A stretch of 64,000 nucleotides of DNA, from IMG/VR virus record IMGVR_UViG_3300028840_006907, positions 160,001-224,000 of that record; one strand, written 5' to 3'. The position numbers and the translations under genes are program-made. Positions 18 through 58,373 of this stretch are shown here, in pieces. The stretch comes from a virus. A model generated the notes under the pieces. That model saw only the letters and a list, made by a program, of their open reading frames with translations. It had not been told where the DNA came from and searched no databases. Positions within the stretch are counted from its first letter, which is position 1; each line of letters begins with the position of its first letter.

Positions 18-548
18 TCATCTTTGGTCCATTTCATCATTAAGCCCTAACTTTTCAGAATATTCCTCAAAAAGAAATCTATGTTTATCACTTTTTGATA
101 AATTGTAGTCTTCCCAAATATCCTCTACTATAGATGTACCATAAAAACATATCCCTGCACAATTATTACTATTGTATTCGTTATAAATTTTCATACAATC
201 CTCACTCCACTCTATCAAATGACATCCTGCAGGAGGGGGAGGGAATGTTTCTACGAATTTTTTATAGTATCTGGATATTATTGGTAGTTTATTATATTCT
301 ACAATAATGTAGTCAAAAGTTGAAGCATGAATTAATCTTATCCATCCTGGAATTTTTTCATCTTTTACTGCATCCCATAATCGTTTATGATTTTTTTCAA
401 TTAACCATGTATCAAGATCACCTTTCTTTAAATATTTATTCCATATTGAATTCCATATGTAAGCGAGACCTCCCCAGGCATCCCTATATTCTTGATAGGT
501 CTCTACAAAGCCGTTTAATTCCGCTACTTTTAATTCTGTGTAACTCAT
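18..548 (-). CDS. hypothetical protein
   Basis: 176-aa ORF, no recognisable motif. Confidence 0.3.
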   Translation of the reverse strand: MSYTELKVAELNGFVETYQEYRDAWGGLAYIWNSIWNKYLKKGDLDTWLIEKNHKRLWDAVKDEKIPGWIRLIHASTFDYIIVEYNKLPIISRYYKKFVETFPPPPAGCHLIEWSEDCMKIYNEYNSNNCAGICFYGTSIVEDIWEDYNLSKSDKHRFLFEEYSEKLGLNDEMDQR

Positions 549-799
549 ACTTTTATGCTACCTGGTTCATTTTGTAAATGTCATATTTTAGGATTTTTCC
601 ATTCTTCCAGTTCTCTAATTTTTATTATTTGGTCAAGAGATAAATCTGTATATTCAGAAATACCAAATTTTTTCATATATTTTTTAACGACTTTGCCTCT
701 GGCTTCTAAAATTTTCTCAGTTTCTTCAGCCGCTTCTTTAGAACTAGTTGTATAATGTGTCTCACCGAATGGCGTTTTAATAGGATAATTCATTATTTT

Positions 800-1726
800 T
801 TACCTTTTATGTGTGAGTAATTTTACTTTTAGATTTTTAATATTTTCGTTTTTATTATCACTACTGATGATCTGTGATAATATATCGACAATACCTGGAT
901 TCTCCAGTTCCTGAACCATCATTTTACTTATCATACCATCAATAGAGATACAGCTATTGATTGTCATTTTTTTCATATTCTTGATATTATTCGCGTTGAC
1001 CACTTCAACGATGGTATTTATTTCACGTTTTATCTCTTCTTCAATGGATTCAATAAGGGTACCTATGACAAAGGTGCGCTCATCAGATCTAGGATCATGG
1101 GGATCATCTGCTATTACAAAAACAGCCTTACATTCTTTGACATTTGCTTTATGCAGAATATCCAGATCAGTAGGCATTCCCCTAATGAAAGAAATTTCAG
1201 TTTTAATATCTTCCGGAAGCTCTTCTAATTTTTCAGTTATTAGTACCATTTTACATTTAGAATATTTGGAAGTATTTTTTATTTCGTGAATGAAATATTT
1301 AATTTTCTTTTCATTGGGATATCCACAAAGGATAACATGATTTTTAAAGGCTATATCCATTAAGCCTCTCCTTTTCCTATTAATAAGATCGATTAATATA
1401 CTGGTTATAACACCGATTAAAGAGCCTATAATACCTATCCCAAGTATCATACAGGCATATGAAATGACAAACCGTCCTATAAAGGTTTTTGCATAAAAAT
1501 CCCCGTATCCTACGGTAGTCATTGTTACAATAGCCCACCAGATTGAATCCAGTAAAGAAATGTCTTGAGAGTCCCTTTCAACAAAATAGAAAGTAACTCC
1601 GAAGAATAGATTTAATACGGCAGCCAAACCTATTACGTATATTAAATCTCTTTTAAAGAGACTCCCAAAACGTAAAAATAATCTGAATATATTCATAAAT
1701 TTTATAATAGACCGTGGGAGAAACAA
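800..1726 (-). CDS. potassium channel with cytoplasmic RCK/TrkA-like domain
   Basis: Two hydrophobic helices flanking the K+ selectivity filter TTVGYGD, followed by a Rossmann-like stretch (HVILCGY) typical of RCK domains. Confidence 0.75.
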   Translation of the reverse strand: MFLPRSIIKFMNIFRLFLRFGSLFKRDLIYVIGLAAVLNLFFGVTFYFVERDSQDISLLDSIWWAIVTMTTVGYGDFYAKTFIGRFVISYACMILGIGIIGSLIGVITSILIDLINRKRRGLMDIAFKNHVILCGYPNEKKIKYFIHEIKNTSKYSKCKMVLITEKLEELPEDIKTEISFIRGMPTDLDILHKANVKECKAVFVIADDPHDPRSDERTFVIGTLIESIEEEIKREINTIVEVVNANNIKNMKKMTINSCISIDGMISKMMVQELENPGIVDILSQIISSDNKNENIKNLKVKLLTHKR

Positions 1727-4343: not shown

Positions 4344-6209
4344 TTATGACGCTTCGACTTCTTCTATGAATTCTTGCTCTGCAGGTTCTGGAACTGGTTC
4401 TGTTACCTGTTCTTCGACCTGGGGAGATTCTTTAGGTTTTGTGGAAGTCATCATATTAGACACATTCTTCACTACATTTGGAAGATTATCACCTAATCCT
4501 GCTTCTTTTAATAATTGATCTACAACAGGAGCCTGAGCGCGATATCCAAGAAGTTGATCCAATAAAGATTGAGTAGAAAAACCTCCTGCAGACATTTTTG
4601 ACCCACCGTTACCATTACTATGGCCATTGCTACCGGTCAAACCTGATACGTTGATAACTTTGAAAGCTTCAATTTTTTCAAGGGGTTTTACACTGGATTC
4701 AATTACTGCTGATATGTGTTCAATTATTTGGAGTTTTACACGCATATCAACAATGTCTTTAGAGAGCCTGTTTTCAGCTTCATTGAGTTTTTCCTGACCT
4801 TCAGCTTCGACTTCGTATTTTCTTTCATCGGCATCAGCTTGAATTTTGATAGCCTCAGCTTTGGCTTTGGCTTCAATTTTGATAGCCTCAGCACGATCTT
4901 GAGCTGCTTCTTTTTCAGCCTGTGCAAGAACTTTAATTTTGGCTGCATCTGATCCGGCTACTTCTTCAGCTCTAATAATTGTAATTTCTCTGGCACGATT
5001 AGCAATTTCTTTTTCACGAGCGGTGGTTACTTTTTCCTCTGCAGAAATAGCGAGTGCTCTAGCTTCATTTGCTTCCTGATCAGCCAAAGAGGTTTCTTTA
5101 GATTTATTAGCAACTTCAATATCTCTTTCCTGTTCAGCAAGTTTTATTGCTTTCTGTTTTTCGATGGTAGCTGACTCTACTGCTTGTTCTTTAACAATAG
5201 TAGCTGATTCAATTGCTTGTTCTTTTTCAATATTGGCTTCTTGTAAAGCTTTTTCTTTTATAATATTTGCTTCGGCAATGGCTTGTTCTTTTCTAATATT
5301 CTGTTCTTCAAGAGCTTTGGTAGTTTCGATTGTTTTCTTTTTAACTTCTTTTTCAGATTCTATCCTTGCTTCTTGGGCTATCTTATTTTGTTCAGCATTA
5401 AATTTTTCTTTTGTGGCATTTTCTTCTGCTGTCCTAGTAGCAATTTCACGTTCTTGTTCAAGTCTAGAATACTCTTTTTCTTTATTAATTTTTAAAGTCT
5501 GTTGTTCAGCTTGAAGATTTTTTGTTTCAATTTTTACTAGATTATCTCTTTCAATCTCATTACGTTCTTTTCTACGCTCTTCGATGATTCTAGTTAATGC
5601 TGTCAATCCCTCAGCATCAAAAGCATTATTCTCATTGAAGTGCTCTCTACTGGTTTGATCAAAACCTGTAAGTGACACAGTTTCAAGCTCTAAGCCATTT
5701 TTCTTAAGGTCTTCCAGAACATTGTTTTGGACTTTTTGCACAAAATCAGCACGTTGCTCATGCAGTTCTCTCATTTGCATTTGAGCAGCAACAGCTCTTA
5801 AGGCGTCAACGAATTTACCTTCAATAAGTTCACGTAGTTTCTCTGGGTCAAGAGTGCGGTCACCAAGAGTTTGAGCGGCATTTGCTATGGAATCAGCTTC
5901 TGGTTGTACCCGCATATAAAACTCTACAAGAACGTCAACTCTCATACGATCTTTTGTAATTAATGCGTCCTTTTCATTTCTTCTTACCGGTAATTTTAAA
6001 GTACTAAGTTTTACCCAGGTTATTTGATGAAGTACAGGTAATACTACTGCTCCACCTTCTTTTATAACTTTTTTCTTGCCCATACCAGTACGGACAAAAG
6101 CCATATCAGATGAAGCTTTTACGTACATCCTAGCAATAATTAATCCTATAACAATTAGTGCCACTAGGATTATACCTGCCATAATTAAAATAGGCATAAG
6201 GTTTTCCAT
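4344..6209 (-). CDS. SPFH/band-7 (flotillin-like) protein with long repetitive coiled coil
   Basis: N-terminal TM helix then SPFH-domain-like sequence (VRTGMGKKKVIKEGGAVVLPVLHQ...), long E/K/A-rich coiled coil with internal repeats (EKEQAIESATIVKEQAVESATIEKQKAI). SD AAAGGGA upstream of start. Confidence 0.7.
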   Translation of the reverse strand: MENLMPILIMAGIILVALIVIGLIIARMYVKASSDMAFVRTGMGKKKVIKEGGAVVLPVLHQITWVKLSTLKLPVRRNEKDALITKDRMRVDVLVEFYMRVQPEADSIANAAQTLGDRTLDPEKLRELIEGKFVDALRAVAAQMQMRELHEQRADFVQKVQNNVLEDLKKNGLELETVSLTGFDQTSREHFNENNAFDAEGLTALTRIIEERRKERNEIERDNLVKIETKNLQAEQQTLKINKEKEYSRLEQEREIATRTAEENATKEKFNAEQNKIAQEARIESEKEVKKKTIETTKALEEQNIRKEQAIAEANIIKEKALQEANIEKEQAIESATIVKEQAVESATIEKQKAIKLAEQERDIEVANKSKETSLADQEANEARALAISAEEKVTTAREKEIANRAREITIIRAEEVAGSDAAKIKVLAQAEKEAAQDRAEAIKIEAKAKAEAIKIQADADERKYEVEAEGQEKLNEAENRLSKDIVDMRVKLQIIEHISAVIESSVKPLEKIEAFKVINVSGLTGSNGHSNGNGGSKMSAGGFSTQSLLDQLLGYRAQAPVVDQLLKEAGLGDNLPNVVKNVSNMMTSTKPKESPQVEEQVTEPVPEPAEQEFIEEVEAS

Positions 6210-18769: not shown

Positions 18770-19723
18770 TTAGAAGCTCAGTACTCTCACCTGGCATGGT
18801 GCCTCCTTTTCAAGTTGATATAATTTGTGATATAACAATTTTTCTTTTTCAGAAATTATTGAAGGTATTTTTATTTTAATAATTGCTTTAAAGTCCCCGA
18901 CTTCTTTTTTGTATGTTATTCCTTTGTTTTTGAATTCTATTTTCTGCCCGTATTGTGTCCCAGGAGGGATTTTTATGTTCACAGTTTTTTTGAAAACTTT
19001 AAGATTAAACGAATCTCCAAGTATTGCTTGAATAGGGCTAATGGTTATTTTTCCAATAATATCAAGGCCATTTACATAGTATCTGGGATCTTCTTTAATA
19101 ATTAGACTTACAATTAAATCGCCAGGAGATCCCCCAGGAATACAATTGCCAAGTTTAGGTATTCTTATGATTTCTAAAAGTGGGTTAAGGGTTATTGTAT
19201 GCTGAATTATCTCAGGCTGGAGAGCAGTTCCATTACATATCTTACATTGATCTCCTTCAGGAATTCTTCCCATACCTTTGCAATATGTACATTTCTTTTT
19301 AGATCCTAGTATCAGTGATAATCCCTGTAAGCCAGTGCCATTACAGTATACACATTTTTTTAATAGCCTCTCTGCTGAACCTGTGCCCGAGCAATCTTTG
19401 CATGGCCCTTTTCTTTTAATTACAATTAATTTATTTATACTTTGAATTAGGTCCATTCTGGTCACGTTTATAGAGACTTTTAAATTGCTTCCTTGTTTGA
19501 AACTTCTTTTCTTTACGAATTGGTTGTCATATTTTTTTCTTTTATTCTCATCTTTTAAAACTTCATAGGCATCTGTGGCTTCTCTGAATTTTTCTTCAGC
19601 AATTTTATCATCAGGGTTTTTGTCAGGATGATACTTTATAGCCAACTTTCGATAAGCGACTTTAATCTCTATATCTGTAGCATCTTCTGGTATATTTAAG
19701 ATCTTATAATAGTTCTTATTCAT
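18770..19723 (-). CDS. dnaJ: DnaJ/Hsp40-type co-chaperone
   Basis: J domain with HPD motif (KYHPDKNP) and four CxxCxGxG zinc-finger repeats. Confidence 0.85.
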   Translation of the reverse strand: MNKNYYKILNIPEDATDIEIKVAYRKLAIKYHPDKNPDDKIAEEKFREATDAYEVLKDENKRKKYDNQFVKKRSFKQGSNLKVSINVTRMDLIQSINKLIVIKRKGPCKDCSGTGSAERLLKKCVYCNGTGLQGLSLILGSKKKCTYCKGMGRIPEGDQCKICNGTALQPEIIQHTITLNPLLEIIRIPKLGNCIPGGSPGDLIVSLIIKEDPRYYVNGLDIIGKITISPIQAILGDSFNLKVFKKTVNIKIPPGTQYGQKIEFKNKGITYKKEVGDFKAIIKIKIPSIISEKEKLLYHKLYQLEKEAPCQVRVLSF

Positions 19724-19819
19724 TTCAAAAAATAGAAAAAAGTTTCAAAAGATTATTAATGGGTTTAATAATTATACGATATCTGGAAGTGATCGCGATA
19801 AGTAAAAAATTTTTTATTT

Positions 19820-36526: not shown

Positions 36527-38488
36527 CTACTCTTCTTCGTCAAATAGTGAATAACTTTCGTATTTTATTTTTTTGTTCTCAACTTTAGTTGTTTCTGGTT
36601 CCGGTTTAGGAGTATCTCCAGTTATACCTAACATCTCAAGGAAAATTTTTTCATTAATTACCTGAACTCCGTATTTCTCAGCTTTCTGGGATTTGTTTGA
36701 ACCTTTATCTTCATTACAAACCAAATATGATAAATTTTTAACAACGGAATTCTTATTAGTACCACCATTTTCTTTCACTAATCCTTGGTAATGCCCACGT
36801 GGATGTTCCATTGATCCGGTAAAACAAAAAGACAGTCCGTCCAGAATACCTTTTTTCTCTTCTTCAACAGTAATGACTTTAAGTAATTCTGTGATCTCAG
36901 ATTTATATTTGATTAATCCCATGACTACATTATTTGCTGAAATGTCAGAAAATCCTTTTAAGGCTTTTATATCATCCACACTTTTTTCCATTAAATTCTC
37001 TATTGTACCAAATGCCTTTATTAATTCTTCTGAGGTTCCTTCAGATATCCCAGGGATTCCTAGAGCAGATAAAAACACAACAGGGGTAAGAGTATATGTT
37101 TTATCAATATTATTCATGACTTTTTGAGCAGATTTTTTACCCCATTTTTCAATTACAGCTATATCCTCTTCTTGAAGTCTGTATATATCGAAAATTTTAT
37201 TCAGTTTCCCAGCTTCACTTAATTTGTCAGCTAAGCTTTCACCAAATTCCTCTATTTTAGTAACTTTGATCCAATTTAAAATTCGGTAGAATATTTTTTT
37301 GGGACAATCATCATTTTCACATATGAGTTTGATACCATCATTAAGAAGCTTAGAATTACAGCTAGGGCACTCTGTTGGGATCTCAATAGGGTTACCCATA
37401 TGAGTAAGAACTTTGGTTATCTTTGGGATTATATCCCCGGCTTTAACTACCATTACAACATCACTACGACCTATACCAAGTCTCTTTATTTCGGCAATAT
37501 TATGCAAGGTTGCTTTTTTAACTTCTGACCCATCGATTATTACTGGTTCCAAGTGAGCCAGAGGTGTAACTACTCCTGTTCTCCCTACTTCCCATGTTTC
37601 TTCATTGAATATTGTAGCTGCACCAGGGGGTTCGAATTTCCAGGCTATTTGGGCTTTAGGTCTGTTTCTGGTAACACCCATTTTTTTCTGAACTTGGTAA
37701 GAGTTCACTTTTATGACAGCACCATCAATATCGAAAGGAAGTTTTTCTCGTTCTACAGCTATTTTTTCGAAAGCATCTACGATTTCCTCTTTTTTACCCA
37801 CTACAGTGAAAGGAATGTTAAACCCAAGTTCATCAAGTCGTTTTATTTTATCCTGTTCATCAAGAGGTTCTGTTAAATCATATGCCATTAAGAATAGGTA
37901 TTTACTGAATTTTCCATCCAGTCTTCTACTAATACCAGAAGCAGCATTTCGTGGATTACTATATTTATCATTTTCAGATAAAACTGTATTGATTTCTTTG
38001 AAATGAGTTTTACTTAATAATATTTCAGCTCTAACAGATCCGGTAAAGTCAGGCATTTCAGATCTTAATACTTTCATATGATCTACATTCTCTTTTATAT
38101 TTTCCCCAGTAGTACCATCACCTCTGGTAATAGCTTTGACCAGTTTCGATTCTTCGTGATCAAGAGAGAGGCTTAATCCATCTAATTTATACTGTAAGAT
38201 ATAAACAGTATCAGGTTTGAATTTCGATGCCCACTTGATAAATTCTTCTTTACTATGTACTTTTTCAAGGCTACCCATGAATATACCATGTTTAGCTTTT
38301 TCCCAATGGGAGGATGGCTCATGACCTACCTTTTCAAAGTAAGGGTGATTAGGAGCCTGTTTTTTAACAAGTGCTCTTAAAGTATCATACTCTTCATCAG
38401 TCATAATTGGATGACCAGAAGATTCATAGGCTTTATCTGCAGCAATAAGTTTATTTATGCTTAATTGTATATCTATCTGTTTTCCCAT
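36527..38488 (-). CDS. ligA: NAD-dependent DNA ligase
   Basis: Adenylation motif KLDGLS, OB and zinc-finger (CPSC...C) regions, C-terminal BRCT-like tail; 653 aa. Confidence 0.9.
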   Translation of the reverse strand: MGKQIDIQLSINKLIAADKAYESSGHPIMTDEEYDTLRALVKKQAPNHPYFEKVGHEPSSHWEKAKHGIFMGSLEKVHSKEEFIKWASKFKPDTVYILQYKLDGLSLSLDHEESKLVKAITRGDGTTGENIKENVDHMKVLRSEMPDFTGSVRAEILLSKTHFKEINTVLSENDKYSNPRNAASGISRRLDGKFSKYLFLMAYDLTEPLDEQDKIKRLDELGFNIPFTVVGKKEEIVDAFEKIAVEREKLPFDIDGAVIKVNSYQVQKKMGVTRNRPKAQIAWKFEPPGAATIFNEETWEVGRTGVVTPLAHLEPVIIDGSEVKKATLHNIAEIKRLGIGRSDVVMVVKAGDIIPKITKVLTHMGNPIEIPTECPSCNSKLLNDGIKLICENDDCPKKIFYRILNWIKVTKIEEFGESLADKLSEAGKLNKIFDIYRLQEEDIAVIEKWGKKSAQKVMNNIDKTYTLTPVVFLSALGIPGISEGTSEELIKAFGTIENLMEKSVDDIKALKGFSDISANNVVMGLIKYKSEITELLKVITVEEEKKGILDGLSFCFTGSMEHPRGHYQGLVKENGGTNKNSVVKNLSYLVCNEDKGSNKSQKAEKYGVQVINEKIFLEMLGITGDTPKPEPETTKVENKKIKYESYSLFDEEE

Positions 38489-38805
38489 TATTCTCCCTCG
38501 TCGTTATCGGTGTCATCATCATCTATATCAATTAAGATGTAACTGAATTGATCAAGTGTTTGTAAAGAGTGCCCAATTAATTTTGTTATATAATCTAAAA
38601 GTTTTTCCTTTAAAGGATCTTCCGATTTAAGAATGGTATAAGAATCTAGTGATTTACCAAATACATCGGATATAGATTTCAGTTTAAACTTCACAGCATC
38701 TAAAACCTGAAGTAAAGAATCGTTGTTCTGTTGGTCACTATTAAGTTTTTCCATATACTCCTTAAATTTATCATCCCCATATTCAGGGTCATTATTATTA
38801 CTCAT
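38488..38805 (-). CDS. small acidic protein
   Basis: 105 aa, ends in DDDDTDNDEGE. Confidence 0.3.
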   Translation of the reverse strand: MSNNNDPEYGDDKFKEYMEKLNSDQQNNDSLLQVLDAVKFKLKSISDVFGKSLDSYTILKSEDPLKEKLLDYITKLIGHSLQTLDQFSYILIDIDDDDTDNDEGE

Positions 38806-39086
38806 TTTTGTCTATTCCTTTAAAATTGATAGAAGCTATCCTATATAATGATATGGAACTAACAAGGGTTTTCGATAAGTAAAAAATAAAAAAAGTTTTT
38901 AAGTCTAATGGTTTGAGTAAGTTACAAGAGGTAATTTTAGGTTTAAAAAAACCATGTTTTTTGATAAGAATATATAATATAGAGTATAAATAATCCTGTT
39001 TTTATGATTTACTAAAAAAGTAATTAATATAAATAGCTATATGAATATGTATATATGAATATAGTTATTTATTTTTTCCTGAATAA

Positions 39087-39149
39087 GGAAAAGTAAAATA
39101 AAAAAGAACAGAAAAATAGTAGTAGAAGAAGAGAGGAATGAGGATTAAA
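39087..39149. repeat. 63-bp direct repeat, copy 1
   Basis: Identical to 40188..40250. Confidence 0.9.
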
Positions 39150-39395
39150 AAAGATATAGATGATATAAAAAGAACCAATATAATGAATTTAATAGTAAAA
39201 ATAAAAATTTAAGTCACCAATATAATGAATAAACTTATGAACAAAGTAAAAATATAACCTATAAAATCTTCAAAAAAAGTTAAATCATAACCTTATTTAT
39301 TCGAACCAGTTATAACAAAAAAAATAAAACCTTAAAAATTTTACTTATCACTTTACCTTTCTAACTTTGTATAAATAGTAGGAGGTAAATTTGAA

Positions 39396-39770
39396 ATGAA
39401 CACAATTTTTATCACAGGTTTGGATAAAATCTCTATTAAAAGATTCATCCAATTTATTCTAAAATACTTAAATGATTACCAAGTTGGTACACTTCATTAC
39501 TTAATGAGTGAAGAGAGCATAAACTATTACATCGAAGATTTTTCAAATAAATTTCAAAAAAGGATCTTCTCTTACTTCTTAAGGAAATCAGGAGATTCTA
39601 TACCCAATCTTCCTACTTCAATAACTGATAGTGCTGATCTTATCATATGGTTTGATTTATACAGTACTAAACCAATAGTTAAACAGAGTAAGACAGAACC
39701 GCATATTCTTAAAGGGGCTCTTATGGATTGGGCAAGACACATAGAGAAATTAGAGAAAGGGGGATTGTAG
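39396..39770 (+). CDS. hypothetical protein
   Basis: 124-aa ORF with AGGAGG SD; lies between the 63-bp repeats. Confidence 0.35.
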   Translation: MNTIFITGLDKISIKRFIQFILKYLNDYQVGTLHYLMSEESINYYIEDFSNKFQKRIFSYFLRKSGDSIPNLPTSITDSADLIIWFDLYSTKPIVKQSKTEPHILKGALMDWARHIEKLEKGGL

Positions 39771-40160
39771 AAAGCCAGTTTGAGGAGGATATTAGGGCTC
39801 AACCCTGTTTGAGGACCACCGGGGCACACGAGGCCGTTGTAACGATGTAAGTCGGTAGTGCCGTGTCATTTAGGAGTTCGATCCAGGGGGATAGATCGTG
39901 CCATGACTCCTGTCAGTATACCGTCATAGGTAAAACCGAGTTACTCAAGATATATTATACCGGTCTGAAGGGTTCATCAAACATGAGAAGTTTACATGGG
40001 TACAAGCCGTTTCTAAGAGTACCTCAAAATTGAATTTTAGCTGTTTTAGGAAACAAAGCCTTACTATGCATGTAGTAAGCGAAATGTCGCAGGCTCGTGC
40101 CTCGCTAGTGACCCAGCGGGGATGGTGAAGACAGAAAGGTGCATTAAAATTGAGTAATAG
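39771..40160. ncRNA. candidate structured RNA of unknown class (GC-rich, hairpin-rich non-coding segment)
   Basis: Local GC well above flanks, several perfect short hairpins (e.g. cttacta-tgcatg-tagtaag), no convincing ORF. Confidence 0.3.
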
Positions 40161-40187
40161 ATGTATCAATAAATAAAAAAATCAATA

Positions 40188-40250
40188 GGAAAAGTAAAAT
40201 AAAAAAGAACAGAAAAATAGTAGTAGAAGAAGAGAGGAATGAGGATTAAA
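40188..40250. repeat. 63-bp direct repeat, copy 2
   Basis: Identical to 39087..39149, spacing 1101 bp. Confidence 0.9.
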
Positions 40251-40376
40251 TAGTGAATTAAATCAATGAGTTACAGTGAGTGCTACTGTGTAATTTAAAG
40301 CGGATTTAAATTTAAAATTAGTACTAAAAAATACAGTATAGTCTAAAAATAAAGGACTATTTATTAGGAATAAATT

Positions 40377-40559
40377 ATGTGTAATGGTTTATCTATTAAG
40401 GAAGATTTACCTAAAGTTGATATCCATGTTGAGTGTGACTGTGGAGAAGAATTAGACATCGATTTACATGGATGGAGTCTGTCTGTGTACGGTGGACTAG
40501 TATTTAAATGCCCTTCCTGTGAGTCAGAAATAAAGACCTATATGGTAGAGAGTGTGTGA
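40377..40559 (+). CDS. small zinc-ribbon protein
   Basis: CDCG...CPSC. Confidence 0.3.
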   Translation: MCNGLSIKEDLPKVDIHVECDCGEELDIDLHGWSLSVYGGLVFKCPSCESEIKTYMVESV

Positions 40560-44002: not shown

Positions 44003-47000
44003 ATGGAGATCGAGATGCTATCACCTTTTGGGAAAATTGTCTGGGAAGATCGATACGCGCTGAAGGATGAATATGGGAAATTAATTGAAAAAAATATTTT
44101 AGAAACATTTCGTAGAGTTGCTACAGCTATTGCTTCTAAGGAAAAAGACTCTAAGTTTTGGGGTGACAAATTTTATAAGATTATGGCAGACCAATCTTTC
44201 TGTCCAGCCGGTAGAGTCCTAGCCCATTCAGGTACACATTATTCTCAACTTCTCAATTGTTTTGTTCTCCCATTCCAGGATGACAGTCTGGAAGAGATTA
44301 TGAACACTGGTAAAAACATGGCTATTGTTCAAAAATATGGTGGGGGCTGTATTGGAGGTGAGAGTAATATTCTTACTAATAAAGGTGTTGTACCATTAAA
44401 AGAAATTGTTGAAGGAAATGATAAAGATCTTAAAGTACTATCTTTTAATTCTGATAATAATGAGATGGAATACTGTGATATTTTAGAAAGACATACAAAT
44501 AATTTATCTGGGGATCGTGTATTCGAAATTGAGTTCGATAATACAAAAGGCGGTGTTGCATCAAGAATAAGAGCTAGCGATTGGCATCCCTTTTTTGTTT
44601 TTGATGGAGTAAAGATAATCCAAGTACGTGCTGATGAGTTAAAACCTGGGATGGCTGTAATAGGCTCAACTGATTTAGGGGTAAATTTAAAGTATGATTC
44701 TATGGGTTGGTTATTAGGTTATATTGCTGGTGACGGTTCGATTGATACTAATAATGGGGAAGATGTACGTGTTAGGGTAGTAGATGACAGTGAAGAGTGT
44801 GTTAAACGTGCAGCAGGAATATTTAATACATCTTATAAACCTTCTAGTGATAAACGTTATAAAGTAAAAATGTGGGCTTGTGAGGTTTATGGAGATGAAG
44901 CTGGGATGGTAAAGGATGAGTTTGGGGGGTATCAAACTAGTGGTACAAAACATGTCCCGAATTCTATCTGGGAAAGTTCTCCTGAAAGAAGACTTTCTTT
45001 TTTAGTTGGGCATATTGATGCAGATGGCTGGTTTAATAAAGAGAAAAAAAGATTTGAAGTTTTTACTGTTAGTAATGAATTGGCAAAAGAATTAATAGCC
45101 TTAGCTGGTGGTCTTGGTATTCGGGCTTCACTACGTTTTAGAAAATCACGTAAAGAAAATGAGCAAGATGGTTGGGAAGTTAGGTATAGTAGCTCTCAAT
45201 TTTCGATTGATTTAATTGTTAATATTAGTGCAAAACATAACCCACTCAATGCTGGATGGGTTATGGGTACTATAAATTTATCTCATGAATGGAAAGATCA
45301 TTTAAAAAGCGTAGGTATTAATGTTTATACAAATAAAGCATGGAGAAAGTCAATTGAAATTGATGGTGTAAAAAGATCATTAGTTTATTGGTTACAGCAT
45401 GGTAAAGCTTCAAGAGAAACTGCTGCTTCTATTCTTAGAGTGTGTGGTGAAGAAAAGATAGCAAGTGCTGTTTTATCTAGCCAAATAGTACTCTCTTCAA
45501 AGGCTACAGGAATTTCAGAAACATTATATGATCTCACTATTGCAAAAAATCAAACATATATGGCATCAGACCCAACTACAGGGGCTTATGTTGTTGTGCA
45601 TAATACAGGATTTAATTTCAGTAGGCTCAGACCATCAGGTTCATATATAAAAGGTGTCAATGGTCGTAGTAGTGGACCCATCGGATTTATTAGCATGATG
45701 TCAACTATCTCAGAAATAATTGAACAAGGCGGGACCCGCAGGGGCGCGTCAATAGGGCTTCTTGAGGCATGGCACCCTGATTTATGGGAGTTTGTTTCTT
45801 ATAAAACTGAACATAATTGGGAATGTCTTCGAGAATTTATTGATGTGAATGATTACGATAAATGGGAATCATTTAAATATGAAAATTTATATAAATGGCA
45901 AATGTTCAATGTCTCTGTAGGAATTACTGATGATTTCTTAGAATCTGTTAAAAACAATAAGGAATGGGTATTTAATTGGAAAGGGGAAGAGTGGGAACTT
46001 TATACCGTTATTTTTAAGAAATATATAAGTGAAGGTAATTACAAAGAATTAACATTTGAAGTTACAGCTAACAATGATCCTACTGCTATATGGAAAGTAA
46101 GAAAGAAAATACCTTATCCTACTGGTAGTGATATATTTGAAGTTACATCAAAAAGAAAAGTAAAAGCTTCCGAGATCTGGGATAGACTGTGTTATAATGC
46201 CTGGGCTGATGGATGTCCGGGCATTATCAATTTAAGTACTGCTCGTAGGATGCATAATTTAGAATATGCCTTCCCTATAGAAGCTACTAATCCTTGTTTT
46301 ACTGGAGATTGTAAATTGGATACTATCAATGGTCCTATGACTTTTGAAAGTCTTGAGGATAAAGAAATTGATCTTAAAACTCCATATGGTTCTATTGAAA
46401 AAGGTAGAATTTGGAAAACAGGGGTAAAATCTACTATCAGATTAAAATTTAATGATGGTAGTTCAATAACGGTTACTCCCGATCAACTATTTTTGTGTCA
46501 TAAAGGAAAAGAGATACGGGCTAAGGATTGTTTAAATAAATGTTTAAATACTTCGGATATACCGTTAAGTGTAGTTTCAATAGAGGATAATGGTGAACAA
46601 GAGGTCTATGATTTTTCAATCCCATGTAATTGGGGTATAGTTAATGGAATAGTGGCTCATAATTGTGGGGAGCAACCTTTAGGGGGATTTAGTTCTTGCA
46701 ATTTGTCAAGCATACTCCTTCCTAATTTTGTTATAGAGGATACCAAATCAGTTGATTGGGATAAACTTAAAGAGGTTGTTCATACTGCTGTCAGATTTTC
46801 GGATAATGTTGTAGATAATTGTGAATTTCCGATTCCGGAAATTAAAGATAAAGCATATCAGGAAAGACGTGTCGGACTAGGTACTATGGGAGTTCATGAC
46901 ATGTTAATCAAAATGGGACTAGATTATGATAGTGATGTGGGTCGTGATGCTGTGGAAGAGGTATTAAGATTTATTCGGGATGAAGCTTATAAAGCATCAA

Positions 47001-48085
47001 TTAAAATTGCGGAAGAGAAGGGGTCTTTTCCAGCCTTTAAAAAGAAAGAAATTTTAAAGAGTGGGTTTATAAAAACACTTCCACCAGAGATCGTAAAATT
47101 GATTGGGAAAAATGGTATTAGAAATAGTGCCCTTTTATCCCAGGCACCCACAGGATCGATCTCAGCGTTAAATAACGTTTCATCTGGGTGTGAACCATGG
47201 TATTCATTATCCTTCCAAAGAAACACTCGTTTGGGTTCCTATGAAGATGGTTGTCCAACTTATATTGAATGGAAGAAAAATAACCCCGAAGCTCCCATAC
47301 CATCCTATTTTAAAACAGCTCCAGAAATAAGCCCTACAGATCACGTAAAAATGCTTATTCTTTTTAGTAAATACATTGATTCAGCGGTGAGTAAGACAGT
47401 TAATCTCCCAAATCATACAACAGTAGATACAGTTAAAGAGACATTTATTTATGCTATGGAAAATGGTGTAAAAGGTCTGACTGTTTTTCGGGATGGTTCT
47501 AAAGAAGGTGTTTTAGTAAATAAACAAAACAAGAAAAAAATTGAAGAAATAATTCCATATACAGATAAAGAAGATTGTTATGAAAATGTAATGTCTCCTA
47601 AAAAGCGGGGAGATAAAACAACTGGTTCAACATATCGTATTCATATGCAAAGTCATAATTTATATGTTACAGTTAATCGAAATAGAGATGGTGATTTAGT
47701 AGAGCTTTTTACTACAGTTGGAGAGAGTAAAAAACCTAATGCACATCATACTAGTGGTGTTGAAGATTCCTGGGCAGAGGGTCTTGGTAAAATAATTAGT
47801 CTAGCTCTGCGTGCAGGAGTGAAACCTAGTTCAATAATTCGGAATTTAAAAAATATTCCATCAGATAAACCAGTATTTGTTACTATCGGTGATAATGAAA
47901 ATTCTGAGCATATACCTTCTCCACCTCATGCTATTGCTAGGGTAATAGAAGATGAGATGAGTAATGGTGAAGAAGAAATTAATATTCAAGGAGGTTATTG
48001 CTCAGAATGTGGCTCAACAAATACTAAAAAGAAGAGTCCCACTTGTTACGAGTGTTTTGACTGTGGCTACGTAGCTTGTGGTTAA
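44003..48085 (+). CDS. nrdJ: class II (adenosylcobalamin-type) ribonucleotide reductase interrupted by two inteins
   Basis: Extein motifs QKYGGG|TGFNFSRLRPSG, GGTRRGA, TNP|CGEQPLGG; C-terminal Cys cluster; 1360 aa before splicing, about 818 aa after. Confidence 0.85.
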   Translation: MEIEMLSPFGKIVWEDRYALKDEYGKLIEKNILETFRRVATAIASKEKDSKFWGDKFYKIMADQSFCPAGRVLAHSGTHYSQLLNCFVLPFQDDSLEEIMNTGKNMAIVQKYGGGCIGGESNILTNKGVVPLKEIVEGNDKDLKVLSFNSDNNEMEYCDILERHTNNLSGDRVFEIEFDNTKGGVASRIRASDWHPFFVFDGVKIIQVRADELKPGMAVIGSTDLGVNLKYDSMGWLLGYIAGDGSIDTNNGEDVRVRVVDDSEECVKRAAGIFNTSYKPSSDKRYKVKMWACEVYGDEAGMVKDEFGGYQTSGTKHVPNSIWESSPERRLSFLVGHIDADGWFNKEKKRFEVFTVSNELAKELIALAGGLGIRASLRFRKSRKENEQDGWEVRYSSSQFSIDLIVNISAKHNPLNAGWVMGTINLSHEWKDHLKSVGINVYTNKAWRKSIEIDGVKRSLVYWLQHGKASRETAASILRVCGEEKIASAVLSSQIVLSSKATGISETLYDLTIAKNQTYMASDPTTGAYVVVHNTGFNFSRLRPSGSYIKGVNGRSSGPIGFISMMSTISEIIEQGGTRRGASIGLLEAWHPDLWEFVSYKTEHNWECLREFIDVNDYDKWESFKYENLYKWQMFNVSVGITDDFLESVKNNKEWVFNWKGEEWELYTVIFKKYISEGNYKELTFEVTANNDPTAIWKVRKKIPYPTGSDIFEVTSKRKVKASEIWDRLCYNAWADGCPGIINLSTARRMHNLEYAFPIEATNPCFTGDCKLDTINGPMTFESLEDKEIDLKTPYGSIEKGRIWKTGVKSTIRLKFNDGSSITVTPDQLFLCHKGKEIRAKDCLNKCLNTSDIPLSVVSIEDNGEQEVYDFSIPCNWGIVNGIVAHNCGEQPLGGFSSCNLSSILLPNFVIEDTKSVDWDKLKEVVHTAVRFSDNVVDNCEFPIPEIKDKAYQERRVGLGTMGVHDMLIKMGLDYDSDVGRDAVEEVLRFIRDEAYKASIKIAEEKGSFPAFKKKEILKSGFIKTLPPEIVKLIGKNGIRNSALLSQAPTGSISALNNVSSGCEPWYSLSFQRNTRLGSYEDGCPTYIEWKKNNPEAPIPSYFKTAPEISPTDHVKMLILFSKYIDSAVSKTVNLPNHTTVDTVKETFIYAMENGVKGLTVFRDGSKEGVLVNKQNKKKIEEIIPYTDKEDCYENVMSPKKRGDKTTGSTYRIHMQSHNLYVTVNRNRDGDLVELFTTVGESKKPNAHHTSGVEDSWAEGLGKIISLALRAGVKPSSIIRNLKNIPSDKPVFVTIGDNENSEHIPSPPHAIARVIEDEMSNGEEEINIQGGYCSECGSTNTKKKSPTCYECFDCGYVACG
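44348..45604 (+). mobile_element. intein 1 (419 aa) with LAGLIDADG homing-endonuclease domain
   Basis: Starts with Cys after QKYGGG, ends VVHN before Thr; two LAGLIDADG motifs (LGYIAGDGSID, LVGHIDADGWF). Confidence 0.8.
46295..46663 (+). mobile_element. intein 2 (123-aa mini-intein, no endonuclease domain)
   Basis: Inserted between TNP and CGEQ of the active-site motif; starts CFTGD, ends VAHN before Cys. Confidence 0.75.
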
Positions 48086-56954: not shown

Positions 56955-57426
56955 AATCGAGGATATTAATTATCATGAAATAGAATCGACAATTATCAAC
57001 ATTTTTGGAGATAAGGTTGATTATTTCATACCAATCCATCATGAGCGGATGGGTTCGTATATTAGCACAAGTGTTTTAATTGATGGCTATGTTTTTGTAA
57101 GAGATTGTTTAGAAGTTCGTGAAAATTTGAACAATCTACAAGAAACAAGAGTTTTTTCAGGAGCTTTGTTTCTTTCAGGTAAATACCAAACAGTGAATTC
57201 GGATGAAATAGGATCATTAAAGAAAAAATTAAAGAATTCATTAAAAAGAAAATTCATTGTTGGTATGAGAGTGATAGTACTTGATGGAGTTTTTAAAAAT
57301 TTGAAAGGTGAAGTGATTAGTATAGAAGATAGTGGGAAAAAAGTTATGATTAAGATTAAGCGCTTGACCCGTGAAATTATAGCACCCATACCTTCGACAC
57401 TTTTGGAGTATTATAAAGACAATTAA
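56914..57426 (+). CDS. NusG/Spt5-like protein with KOW motif, tentative
   Basis: C-terminal FIVGMRVIVLDGVFKNLKGEVISIED resembles a KOW element. Confidence 0.4.
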   Translation: MAKSNKWLILELNEIEDINYHEIESTIINIFGDKVDYFIPIHHERMGSYISTSVLIDGYVFVRDCLEVRENLNNLQETRVFSGALFLSGKYQTVNSDEIGSLKKKLKNSLKRKFIVGMRVIVLDGVFKNLKGEVISIEDSGKKVMIKIKRLTREIIAPIPSTLLEYYKDN

Positions 57427-57458
57427 TAATCTTTTGAAACTTTTCTTGAGATAGAGAT

Positions 57459-58373
57459 ATGGATAATTTAATAGTAGATGGTTTTGGTATAGTTTATAAG
57501 TCACATTATGCTTTTAATACCCTATTAACTTCTACAGGGATATTATCTGGAAGTGTTTATGGTTTTTTGATTAGTATGAGAACTATTAAAAATAGTTATC
57601 CTCATTGTCATCTGACGATTGCTTGGGATAATGATGCTACAAGAAGAAAAGAAGCCTTTAGCAGTTATAAAAGTAATCGTAAAAAAATAGGTCTCTTTGA
57701 ACAAATAGAAGATCTCAAAGAAATTTTTTCAAATTTAAATGTCTCTCAGGCCGAATATGCGGGAGAAGAAGCTGATGATGTTATAGCATCTCTGACAAAG
57801 AAATACACTGAAAATTTAGTCTATATTTACAGTTCAGATAAAGATATGTTTCAATTGGTTGAAAATGGGAAAGTTATTGCCATAAGACCTAAAAAAGGCA
57901 AAAATCCTGAGAGATATTATGATGAAGAGAAAGTCAAAGAAGAATTTGAGGTCAGTCCGAAAAATTTTGCTTGTTTTCAATGTTTTCGAGGGGATTCTGT
58001 CGATGGCATCCCAGGAGTCCCACGTGTGAAATCTTCTTTACTTGCTTACCTTTCAGAAAAATACGAAACTCCAGAAAGAATCTACCAACATCTCGATGAA
58101 GAAAAATTAACTCCTTATCAAAGAAAAGCTCTTTTAGAATTTAAGGAACAAATAACAGTTAATATGCAGTTAGTGACATTACGTACAGATTTAGTATTAA
58201 ATGTGATTGATGGTGAACCTAAACCTTCTGCATTATTACCTTTTTTAGATAAGTATGAAATACGTTCAATTAACCCAGATACATATGCAAGAGTCTTTGC
58301 AGATATCCCTTCTTTTAATGCAAGAAAAGCTCCTAGTTTTGAGAGCTATTCTTTATTTGATGATGAGGAGTAA
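57459..58373 (+). CDS. 5'-3' exonuclease / flap endonuclease (Pol I N-terminal-type)
   Basis: LIVDGFGIVYKSHYAF and acidic clusters (EADDVIASL, SSDKDMFQL, H3TH region). Confidence 0.8.
   Translation: MDNLIVDGFGIVYKSHYAFNTLLTSTGILSGSVYGFLISMRTIKNSYPHCHLTIAWDNDATRRKEAFSSYKSNRKKIGLFEQIEDLKEIFSNLNVSQAEYAGEEADDVIASLTKKYTENLVYIYSSDKDMFQLVENGKVIAIRPKKGKNPERYYDEEKVKEEFEVSPKNFACFQCFRGDSVDGIPGVPRVKSSLLAYLSEKYETPERIYQHLDEEKLTPYQRKALLEFKEQITVNMQLVTLRTDLVLNVIDGEPKPSALLPFLDKYEIRSINPDTYARVFADIPSFNARKAPSFESYSLFDDEE

Follow-up and report, generated by a model that had tools for sequence, protein, structure and literature searches.

What keeps two stretches of non-coding DNA identical, base for base, in a phage whose relatives have diverged widely? 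This question is raised by a locus within positions 160,001 to 224,000 of IMG/VR virus record IMGVR_UViG_3300028840_006907, a stretch of 64,000 nucleotides (nt) that we refer to as the window. The locus lies in a divergent intergenic region of ~1.57 kb in a 388.6-kb metagenomic phage, where a pair of direct repeats brackets a module of about 1.1 kb containing a small open reading frame (ORF) and a GC-rich element. The original prediction, made from these letters alone, held that the identity of the repeats implies recent duplication or active maintenance, and considered a cassette that excises or inverts, duplicated regulatory modules, and origin repeats. Comparative analysis shows a pair that is conserved as architecture and not as sequence, one that is old, kept in position and homogenised within genomes.

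We began with the repeat itself. The 63-mer first described occurs exactly twice in the window, at 39087-39149 and 40188-40250 on the plus strand, with no mismatches; the expectation from 100 dinucleotide-preserving shuffles is zero. The perfect repeat is one base longer on the left, giving 64 bp (39086-39149 and 40187-40250) with a start-to-start distance of 1101 bp, and similarity extends to 68 columns if one gap is allowed. There is no other long perfect repeat in the window, and no further copy of this one. Similarly, 18-mers of the repeat, with 3 mismatches allowed, are found elsewhere in the window 22 times, compared to 23.3 ± 8.0 for shuffled versions, indicating no enrichment. Both copies are intergenic, as the original prediction had it: no ORF of at least 40 amino acids (aa) overlaps either one, ruling out a coding role.

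The pair is present in independent data. A 388,651-bp JGI metagenome contig (Ga0180437_10000019, locus L001) is identical to the window, and an independent Logan assembly (SRR6963591, locus L002) contains a 1097-bp unitig that corresponds exactly to window positions 39120-40216, so that it includes the final 30 nt of copy 1 at one end and the initial 30 nt of copy 2 at the other. These are the ends expected of a graph with k = 31 that branches at a true 64-bp repeat, and hence the repeat is confirmed in a second data set. For the same reason, we rejected the 1097-bp contig as evidence of a circle; it is the unitig between the copies of a repeat longer than k. An assembly artefact was also rejected: independent assemblies agree, a single read is longer than the repeat, and the MEGAHIT contigs that run through the homologous repeats of two relatives (L003 and L150) were built with k = 141, which also exceeds the repeat length.

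Related loci were recovered from 13 distinct lineages (loci L003-L013, L057, L139, L149, L150, L152, L155 and L156). The ORF family and the RNA encoded downstream of it (described below) were the only routes to these relatives, so genomes lacking the module would be missed. For each locus, sequence preceding the ORF was compared with that following the RNA, except in L008, where the upstream DNA is truncated. A near-perfect pair of 30-64 nt was seen at the same two positions in six lineages (Table 1). Copy 2 starts 8-40 nt past the 3' end of the RNA in all pairs; the spacing between copies ranges from 847 to 1157 bp and the distance from copy 1 to the ATG from 88 to 246 nt. Another Logan contig, L010, breaks at both homologous positions, like L002.

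Identity between the two copies of a genome is 98-100%. When repeats of different lineages are compared, similarity does not exceed that of composition-matched shuffles, with the exception of the window and L150, whose repeats are identical at 35 of 40 positions (score of 20 versus 11.1 ± 2.0) although their ORFs are only 39% identical. Near-identity within genomes combined with near-randomness between them is the hallmark of concerted evolution. These data speak for active maintenance, as near-perfect pairs occupy the same two positions in six diverged lineages, each lineage having a sequence of its own. Recent duplication was rejected, since the pair predates lineages whose ORFs are only 36-54% identical to the ORF of the window.

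Table 1. Positions of the repeats and associated features in the window and in related loci
Feature	Locus	Position	Strand	Description
Very AT-rich tract	Window	38950-39085		15-17% GC in composition profiles; centre of the divergent intergenic region; precedes copy 1
Palindrome TTTTCCT-gaata-AGGAAAA	Window	39074-39092		Perfect; right arm is nt 1-7 of copy 1; absent at copy 2
Direct repeat, copy 1	Window	39086-39149	+	64 bp; 86% purine; no folding potential; ends 246 nt before the ORF start codon
Exact copies of ACCAATATAATGAAT	Window	39174-39188, 39216-39230	+	Two copies of 15 nt, 42 bp apart; contain TATAAT
Promoter-like block and ribosome-binding site	Window	39340-39385	+	TTTACTTATC...GTATAAATAG...AGGAGG; directly upstream of the ORF
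Small ORF	Window	39396-39770	+	124 aa; strong ribosome-binding site; predicted fold a minimal P-loop/RecA-like alpha/beta core
Structured non-coding RNA	Window	39776-40171	+	~395 nt; 14 predicted helices: long-range helices closing a 5' multi-helix domain, then 3' hairpins
Direct repeat, copy 2	Window	40187-40250	+	Identical to copy 1; starts 16 nt past the RNA 3' end; ends 126 nt before the next start codon (40377)
Two conserved hairpins	Window	40271-40312	+	Just past copy 2; TTACAGT-N7-ACTGT(G)TAA and AATTTAAA-gcgga-TTTAAATT
Repeat pair	Window	Copy 1 ends 246 nt before the ATG		64 nt; 64/64 identical
Repeat pair	L003	Copy 1 ends 241 nt before the ATG		64 nt; 63/64 identical
Repeat pair	L012	Contig ends		30/30 identical
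Repeat pair	L149			49 nt; 48/49 identical
Repeat pair	L150			50 nt; 50/50 identical
Repeat pair	L155			44 nt; 43/44 identical
Decayed repeat pair	L009	Same positions		31/37 identical, gapped
No repeat pair	L152, L156			ORF and RNA kept
Boundary palindrome	L003	~231-250		ATTCTTTT/AAAAGAAT
Boundary palindrome	L150	~142-160		CTTTTCTC/GAGAAAAG
Boundary palindrome	L155	~606-625		AATCTTTC/GAAAGATT
Tandem array	L003	1-330		Iteron-like
Tandem array	L004-L007	5' parts		Iteron-like
Tandem array	L057	~900-1215	-	Iteron-like
Structured non-coding RNA	L003	950-1385
Structured non-coding RNA	L149	~5400-5703
Structured non-coding RNA	L150	~700-1076
Structured non-coding RNA	L057	29-380	-

How might identity persist in a sequence that drifts? 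Large lytic phages homogenise repeats efficiently by homologous recombination. The account we favour, tentatively and at somewhat less than an even chance, is that homologous recombination and gene conversion keep the copies identical, making the module a homology-bounded cassette whose copy number could change by loop-out or tandem expansion. During phage replication, gene conversion and unequal crossing-over would homogenise the copies. The module might be looped out as a circle of ~1.1 kb or expanded in tandem, either of which would raise the dose of RNA and protein, and its simple loss would be selected against. A tandem or circle junction should read GATGTATCAATAAATAAAAAAATCAAT + repeat + AAAGATATAGATG, and a deletion junction TTTTTTCCTGAATA + repeat + TAGTGAATTAAATC. 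There is precedent in T4-type phages, where short repeated intergenic cassettes recombine to give deletions, duplications and encapsidated mini-circles (PMC2839356).

Several features of the pair are in line with this proposal. Identity and position persist while the sequence drifts, which suggests that identity itself is probably retained or useful. Enclosing a needed module in perfect repeats exposes it to a constant risk of deletion, and this, too, supports the notion that identity is of use. The lack of a promoter consensus, of structure, of complementarity to the RNA and of other copies in the window leaves sequence-specific roles without support. Moreover, the boundaries are sharp, the tracts, at 30-64 nt, have lengths that are usual for conversion or recombination and not for protein sites, and the decayed pair of L009 is what one would expect once divergence escapes conversion.

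Other observations weigh against homogenisation of a recombination-bounded module. No deletion, tandem junction or circle was seen in the assemblies, and short-read graphs are blind to these when the repeat exceeds k. L152 and L156 keep ORF and RNA without the pair, indicating that the pair is dispensable for the module. The resemblance between the window and L150 repeats, given how far their ORFs have diverged, hints at some constraint on sequence. The copies of L149 and L150 all precede a start codon by 75-92 nt, an arrangement that fits regulatory duplication equally well. Finally, the way in which the relatives were found means that genomes without the module went unsampled. On the other side of the balance is one contig. 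Logan contig L012 (SRR31655991, 1066 bp) begins and ends with the same 30-mer, giving a period of 1036 bp. Given a graph with k = 31, a closed cycle, a repeat of exactly 30 nt and pruned flanks explain this equally well; the contig is compatible with a circular or tandem form and is no proof of one.

The left boundary of copy 1 has a feature of its own. In four of five lineages, a perfect palindrome of 7-8 bp, of the type TCTTTTC...GAAAAGA, lies at the left edge of copy 1, and it is never found at copy 2. A perfect hairpin of at least 7 bp occurs in only 3.3% of 55-nt windows of this DNA. The palindrome could be a protein-binding or cruciform site in the middle of the divergent region, or it could mark a breakpoint or the limit of a conversion tract. 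Its recurrence bears on one alternative, namely that an ancient partial tandem duplication left two copies around an intervening segment, which are homogenised by conversion, serve no function and are slowly being lost. Free drift of the repeat sequence between lineages, decay in L009, loss from L152 and L156 with the module intact, and the lack of any detectable functional motif or structure in the repeat are all as one would predict for such a relic. However, a relic does not readily explain why the boundary matches a conserved palindrome, nor why the pair persists in 6 of about 9 assessable lineages, with ORF identity down to 36%, when the surrounding intergenic DNA has been much altered, as seen in the variable copy spacing and ATG distance. 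Selection should also erode a perfect repeat around a needed module, given the hazard of deletion. On balance, we regard a functionless relic as quite unlikely.

The genomic context argues against mobility. All 13 lineages carry both ORF and RNA, at one and the same syntenic position. Gene order does not vary among contigs long enough to show it, with ligase and acidic protein genes on the minus strand followed by the small ORF, the RNA, the clamp loader and ribonucleotide reductase (RNR) on the plus strand. This identical synteny implies that the unit is a fixed part of the replication region of the clade and not a moving cassette. Identical direct repeats bracketing a discrete unit of ~1.1 kb do resemble an integrated element, and the repeats might in principle be the attL and attR sites of a mobile cassette integrated by site-specific recombination. 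Yet no recombinase domain was found in or beside the unit, where the proteins are the ligase, a RecD2-like helicase, clamp-loader subunits, RNR and small unknowns; the unit sits at one syntenic site in every relative, all of which were recovered through the ORF or RNA; and two lineages (L152 and L156) have the unit without the repeats, the kind of relative that the original prediction had said would argue against a mobile cassette. Taken together with the agreement among assemblies noted above, these findings make attachment sites, or an artefact of assembly, highly improbable. The mobile cassette of the original prediction thus finds no favour, and inversion, which it also raised, is impossible with repeats in direct orientation.

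Within the module, the description of its contents as a small ORF plus a GC-rich element was correct as far as it went, but the latter had not been recognised as a gene for a large structured RNA. The GC-rich segment (~39770-40170) reaches 55% GC, compared to ~31% for the genome. Folding of the single sequence was uninformative (z of +0.45, plus strand), and structure emerged only by comparative analysis. RNAalifold applied to 8 sequences gave 80 pairs, 44 of them with compensatory changes. In this model, 94% of cells are paired, compared to 38-42% when partners are slid by 1-3 columns, and double-sided changes occur in 45 pairs, versus 19.5 ± 2.8 in shuffles (0 of 500 reach 45) and 9-13 in the slid controls. 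The RNA can be assigned to the plus strand because its conserved G:U pairs would be C:A on the other strand.

The RNA starts directly after the stop codon of the ORF and is always preceded by a gene for a protein of 107-133 aa. Across relatives, its conservation exceeds that of the ORF, and inserts of variable length lie between invariant blocks. A covariance model (R1) built on its 3' domain finds the RNA right after the ORF in every related locus, including the most divergent ones (L152, E of 4e-5; L156, E of 1e-4; L155, E of 0.025 and at the correct position). R1 has no match in the remote clamp-loader relatives. Searches of Rfam 15 gave no match to the RNA at gathering thresholds or at E ≤ 10 for the window, and none at E ≤ 1 for 8 relatives; weak Rfam hits in the window fell inside the ORF only and were set aside as chance. 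ARAGORN found no transfer RNA (tRNA) or transfer-messenger RNA (tmRNA). Comparative support for the RNA is strong, and it appears to represent a class not described before, one always found with a small P-loop-like protein. This protein belongs to a family of 26 members, 107-133 aa in length, with no match in Pfam or PHROG. Its predicted fold is a generic P-loop-like core that lacks a canonical Walker A motif.

We also considered whether the RNA could pair with the flanking repeats and act as a guide, in the manner of a bridge RNA. Lineage-matched combinations of RNA and repeat gave no longer matches and no better duplex energies than mismatched combinations, and neither an IS110-like nor any other recombinase that could serve an RNA-guided system is present. 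This idea was rejected.

The strand and GC-skew switch beside an AT-rich tract keeps two other suggestions of the original prediction, duplicated regulatory modules and origin repeats, in contention. In the first case, a cis-regulatory block of ~50-64 nt would have been duplicated ahead of two transcription units, the ORF-RNA unit and the clamp-loader/RNR operon, so that both are controlled alike; the element might be an activator, repressor or UP-like site or a shared leader, and conversion would be a side effect. The positions of the copies suit this account, as they lie upstream of gene starts by 246 and 126 nt in the window, 88 and 75 nt in L149, 92 and 85 nt in L150, and 119 and 195 nt in L155. 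The significant similarity between the window and L150 repeats is also what it would predict. In addition, several repeats share a loose motif, AAAG(A)AACAGAAA(A)TAG, the L003 repeat contains GAATATAATG, a -10-like element, and conserved hairpins and AT-rich promoter-like DNA lie past copy 2.

Other data are harder to reconcile with regulation through the repeat. Six sigma-70-like promoter sites were found in the region 38700-40500, fewer than the 8.9 ± 3.6 of shuffles, and none lies within either copy. Nor do parts of the repeat recur at other operons in the window. On these grounds, the repeat was ruled out as a general promoter or operator; the sequence AAATAGTA is likewise not enriched in the window (8 versus 6.95 expected). 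Most pairs of lineages show no repeat similarity beyond composition, binding sites seldom require perfect identity over 44-64 nt, and L152 and L156 do without the pair. The ORF has its own promoter-like block, TTTAC...GTATAAATAG, which is conserved across lineages when upstream sequences are right-aligned and lies outside the repeat, near the ORF. Its promoter-like function is inferred from this conservation; GTATAAATAG is not significantly enriched in the window (13 hits versus 9.3 expected). All told, a duplicated regulatory block is possible though unlikely.

The window repeat has no secondary structure (minimum free energy of 0.0 kcal/mol), the repeats of other lineages fold no better than shuffles, and no terminator-like site was found in 38700-40500. 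A terminator or stem-loop can be ruled out by the folding energy together with the 86% purine content. The minus strand of the repeat (39106-39122 and 40207-40223) reads TTTTTCTGTTCTTTTTTATTTT, which presumably resembles the class II pause/termination signal of T7 RNA polymerase (ATCTGTT plus a U-run), with a match at only 6 of 7 positions. A CTGTT-plus-T-run motif is seen again in the L150 and L003 repeats. Just past copy 2, the second of the two conserved hairpins covaries between lineages (window, L003, L008, L009 and L011), with arms TTTAAA, CTTGAA or TTATAA and G:T wobbles, suggesting that this region is probably transcribed on the plus strand. These hairpins could serve the downstream replication operon as a leader or processing element, or they could be the 3' end of the ORF-RNA transcript.

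Cumulative GC skew reaches its minimum at 38-40 kb, being negative over 1-38 kb and positive over 40-64 kb, and this coincides with the switch in gene strand. GC content is 15-17% at 38950-39099. Composition is thus suggestive of a candidate origin or unwinding region in the AT-rich tract, and of a candidate origin or control hub at the locus as a whole. One caveat here is that skew also tracks gene orientation, as in a block at 12-14 kb, and hence the minimum is no proof of an origin. At the position of the two ACCAATATAATGAAT copies, relatives carry tandem arrays, with 44-bp units present 2-4 times in L003-L007 and 37-bp units present 3 times in L057. The L003 lineage also has 28-34-bp units and L057 a 28-nt pair, and many contigs break at these arrays.

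Could the two copies belong to an origin? They might be initiator-binding sites, or polypurine sites that form R-loops, flanking an origin-proximal control module, much as a rep gene may be flanked by iteron sets, or a primer RNA followed by a purine tract. The skew minimum and strand switch fall exactly at the locus, the AT-rich tract with a conserved palindrome at its edge adjoins copy 1, relatives have iteron-like arrays in the same region, replication genes lie on both sides, and the purine-rich repeat of the window comes directly after the RNA 3' end. Set against this, the copies number only two, in one orientation and separated by 1.1 kb; not all of the repeats are rich in purine (53% in L149); and no initiator (Rep) homolog was found at the locus, the ORF having no Pfam or PHROG hit and only a generic fold. 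Because skew follows gene orientation as well, the compositional argument loses some of its force. We consider origin repeats improbable.

A bolder version of the recombination proposal would make the pair a selected device, conserved across a clade of huge phages, by which an origin-proximal unit of ~1.1 kb is excised or expanded during infection to amplify a phage-encoded ribonucleoprotein of a completely new class. The unit would then consist of iteron-like repeats, a P-loop-like protein and a large structured RNA, and the RNA might be a ribozyme or a replication or primer RNA acting at the adjacent origin. This version we hold to be decidedly unlikely.

Genes for replication lie to either side of the locus. 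To the left, on the minus strand, are genes for the acidic 105-aa protein, a NAD-dependent ligase and the RecD2-like helicase; to the right, on the plus strand, are those for a 60-aa Cys-rich protein, a 271-aa protein, the clamp-loader subunits delta' and delta, and an intein-containing RNR. The acidic protein (38488-38805, minus strand) has a poly-Asp/Glu tail, no Pfam match and only a weak PHROG hit, and its gene opens the leftward operon in every relative whose contig extends that far (L057, L149, L152, L155 and L156). The RNR (44003-48085, plus strand; 1360 aa) is interrupted by intein and homing-endonuclease (LAGLIDADG) domains, and its L149 version, of 1740 aa, has two intein-splicing hits.

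Searches for the clade elsewhere returned little. No cultured-phage relative was found by DNA match, and identity between the ligase and its best hits is 33% or less. In IMG/VR, only clamp loaders of 25% identity were seen and the 271-aa neighbour was not found; in GTDB genomes, the clade was not detected. A scan of metagenomes with a degenerate 20-nt motif from the RNA gave mostly chance hits, the real ones being L057 and L139 only.

Two other repeats in the window lie far from the module. The longest inverted pair is of 57 nt (19716-19772 and 57410-57466), 75% complementary and 37.6 kb apart. Adjacent 33-bp (11-codon) tandem repeats are present at 4830-4895 and 5145-5210, inside a 621-aa ORF on the minus strand (4344-6209), suggesting a repetitive, possibly coiled-coil or structural, protein.

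What is the significance of this locus? In a clade of very large phages, replication genes flank an uncatalogued RNA of ~395 nt with unusually strong covariation. Large structured RNAs are seldom newly found, and they often prove to be ribozymes or scaffolds of ribonucleoproteins. The RNA-protein module, more than the repeat, is the target for a specialist to follow up, and it would merit this even if only the neutral or regulatory explanations hold, in which case the repeat would be of modest interest. The non-coding pair, with its drifting sequence and retained identity, offers a particularly clear case, in nature and in a virus, of homology kept for its own sake. That an RNA gene beside a candidate origin undergoes homology-bounded excision or amplification is a hypothesis open to direct testing with existing read sets.

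The best documented model for such a pair is the promoter-early stem-loop (PeSL) cassette of T4-type phages (Arbiol et al. 2010, PMC2839356; Comeau et al. 2014, PMC4122927). PeSLs, too, are short, near-identical intergenic repeats flanking small genes in a large lytic phage, and recombination between neighbouring copies yields deletions, duplications and small circular DNAs. However, PeSLs contain a sigma-70 consensus promoter and a stem-loop terminator, number ~50 per genome and occupy hypervariable ORFan regions, whereas here there are two copies in 64 kb, with no promoter consensus or stem-loop, a sequence private to each lineage, and a conserved syntenic module between them. We therefore rejected assignment of the repeat to the PeSL type.

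Concerted evolution by gene conversion has its classical cases in tufA/tufB and the rRNA operons. There, as here, copies are identical within a genome and orthologous copies diverge between genomes. Those genes are selected for their product, though, whereas the tract in question is 30-64 nt of non-coding DNA with no recognisable function. Iteron sets flank the initiator gene in P1 (incC-repA-incA) and in mini-F ori2; these iterons are ~17-22 bp in length, multi-copy and bound by Rep. The likeness lies in a small gene with repeats to its left and right, in a replication-control region that adjoins an AT-rich tract, and in the tandem arrays of relatives. In contrast, this locus has one 64-bp copy per side, no Rep homolog and a large structured RNA inside. 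As for arrays, the window has only the two 15-nt copies, 42 bp apart, and the 64-bp pair, and the units in relatives measure 44, 28-34 and 37 bp; as for an origin of iteron type, the AT-rich region and the skew switch are present, with the reservation about gene orientation already noted.

The pair resembles attL and attR in that identical direct repeats bound a discrete unit; it differs in lacking an integrase, in its fixed synteny, in that no relative showed an empty site, and in that the unit is found without repeats in some relatives. The RNA is comparable in size and structural complexity to the large non-coding RNAs of Rfam (GOLLD, ROOL, HEARO, OLE, RNase P RNA, tmRNA, and group I and II introns), and GOLLD and ROOL are, like it, phage-borne. 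Unlike these, it matches no Rfam 15 model, and a specific gene for a protein of 107-133 aa always precedes it. Repeats homogenised by conversion and recombinogenic phage cassettes are thus already known; what is new is a lineage-private pair, conserved in architecture, around a fixed ORF-RNA module at an origin-like locus.

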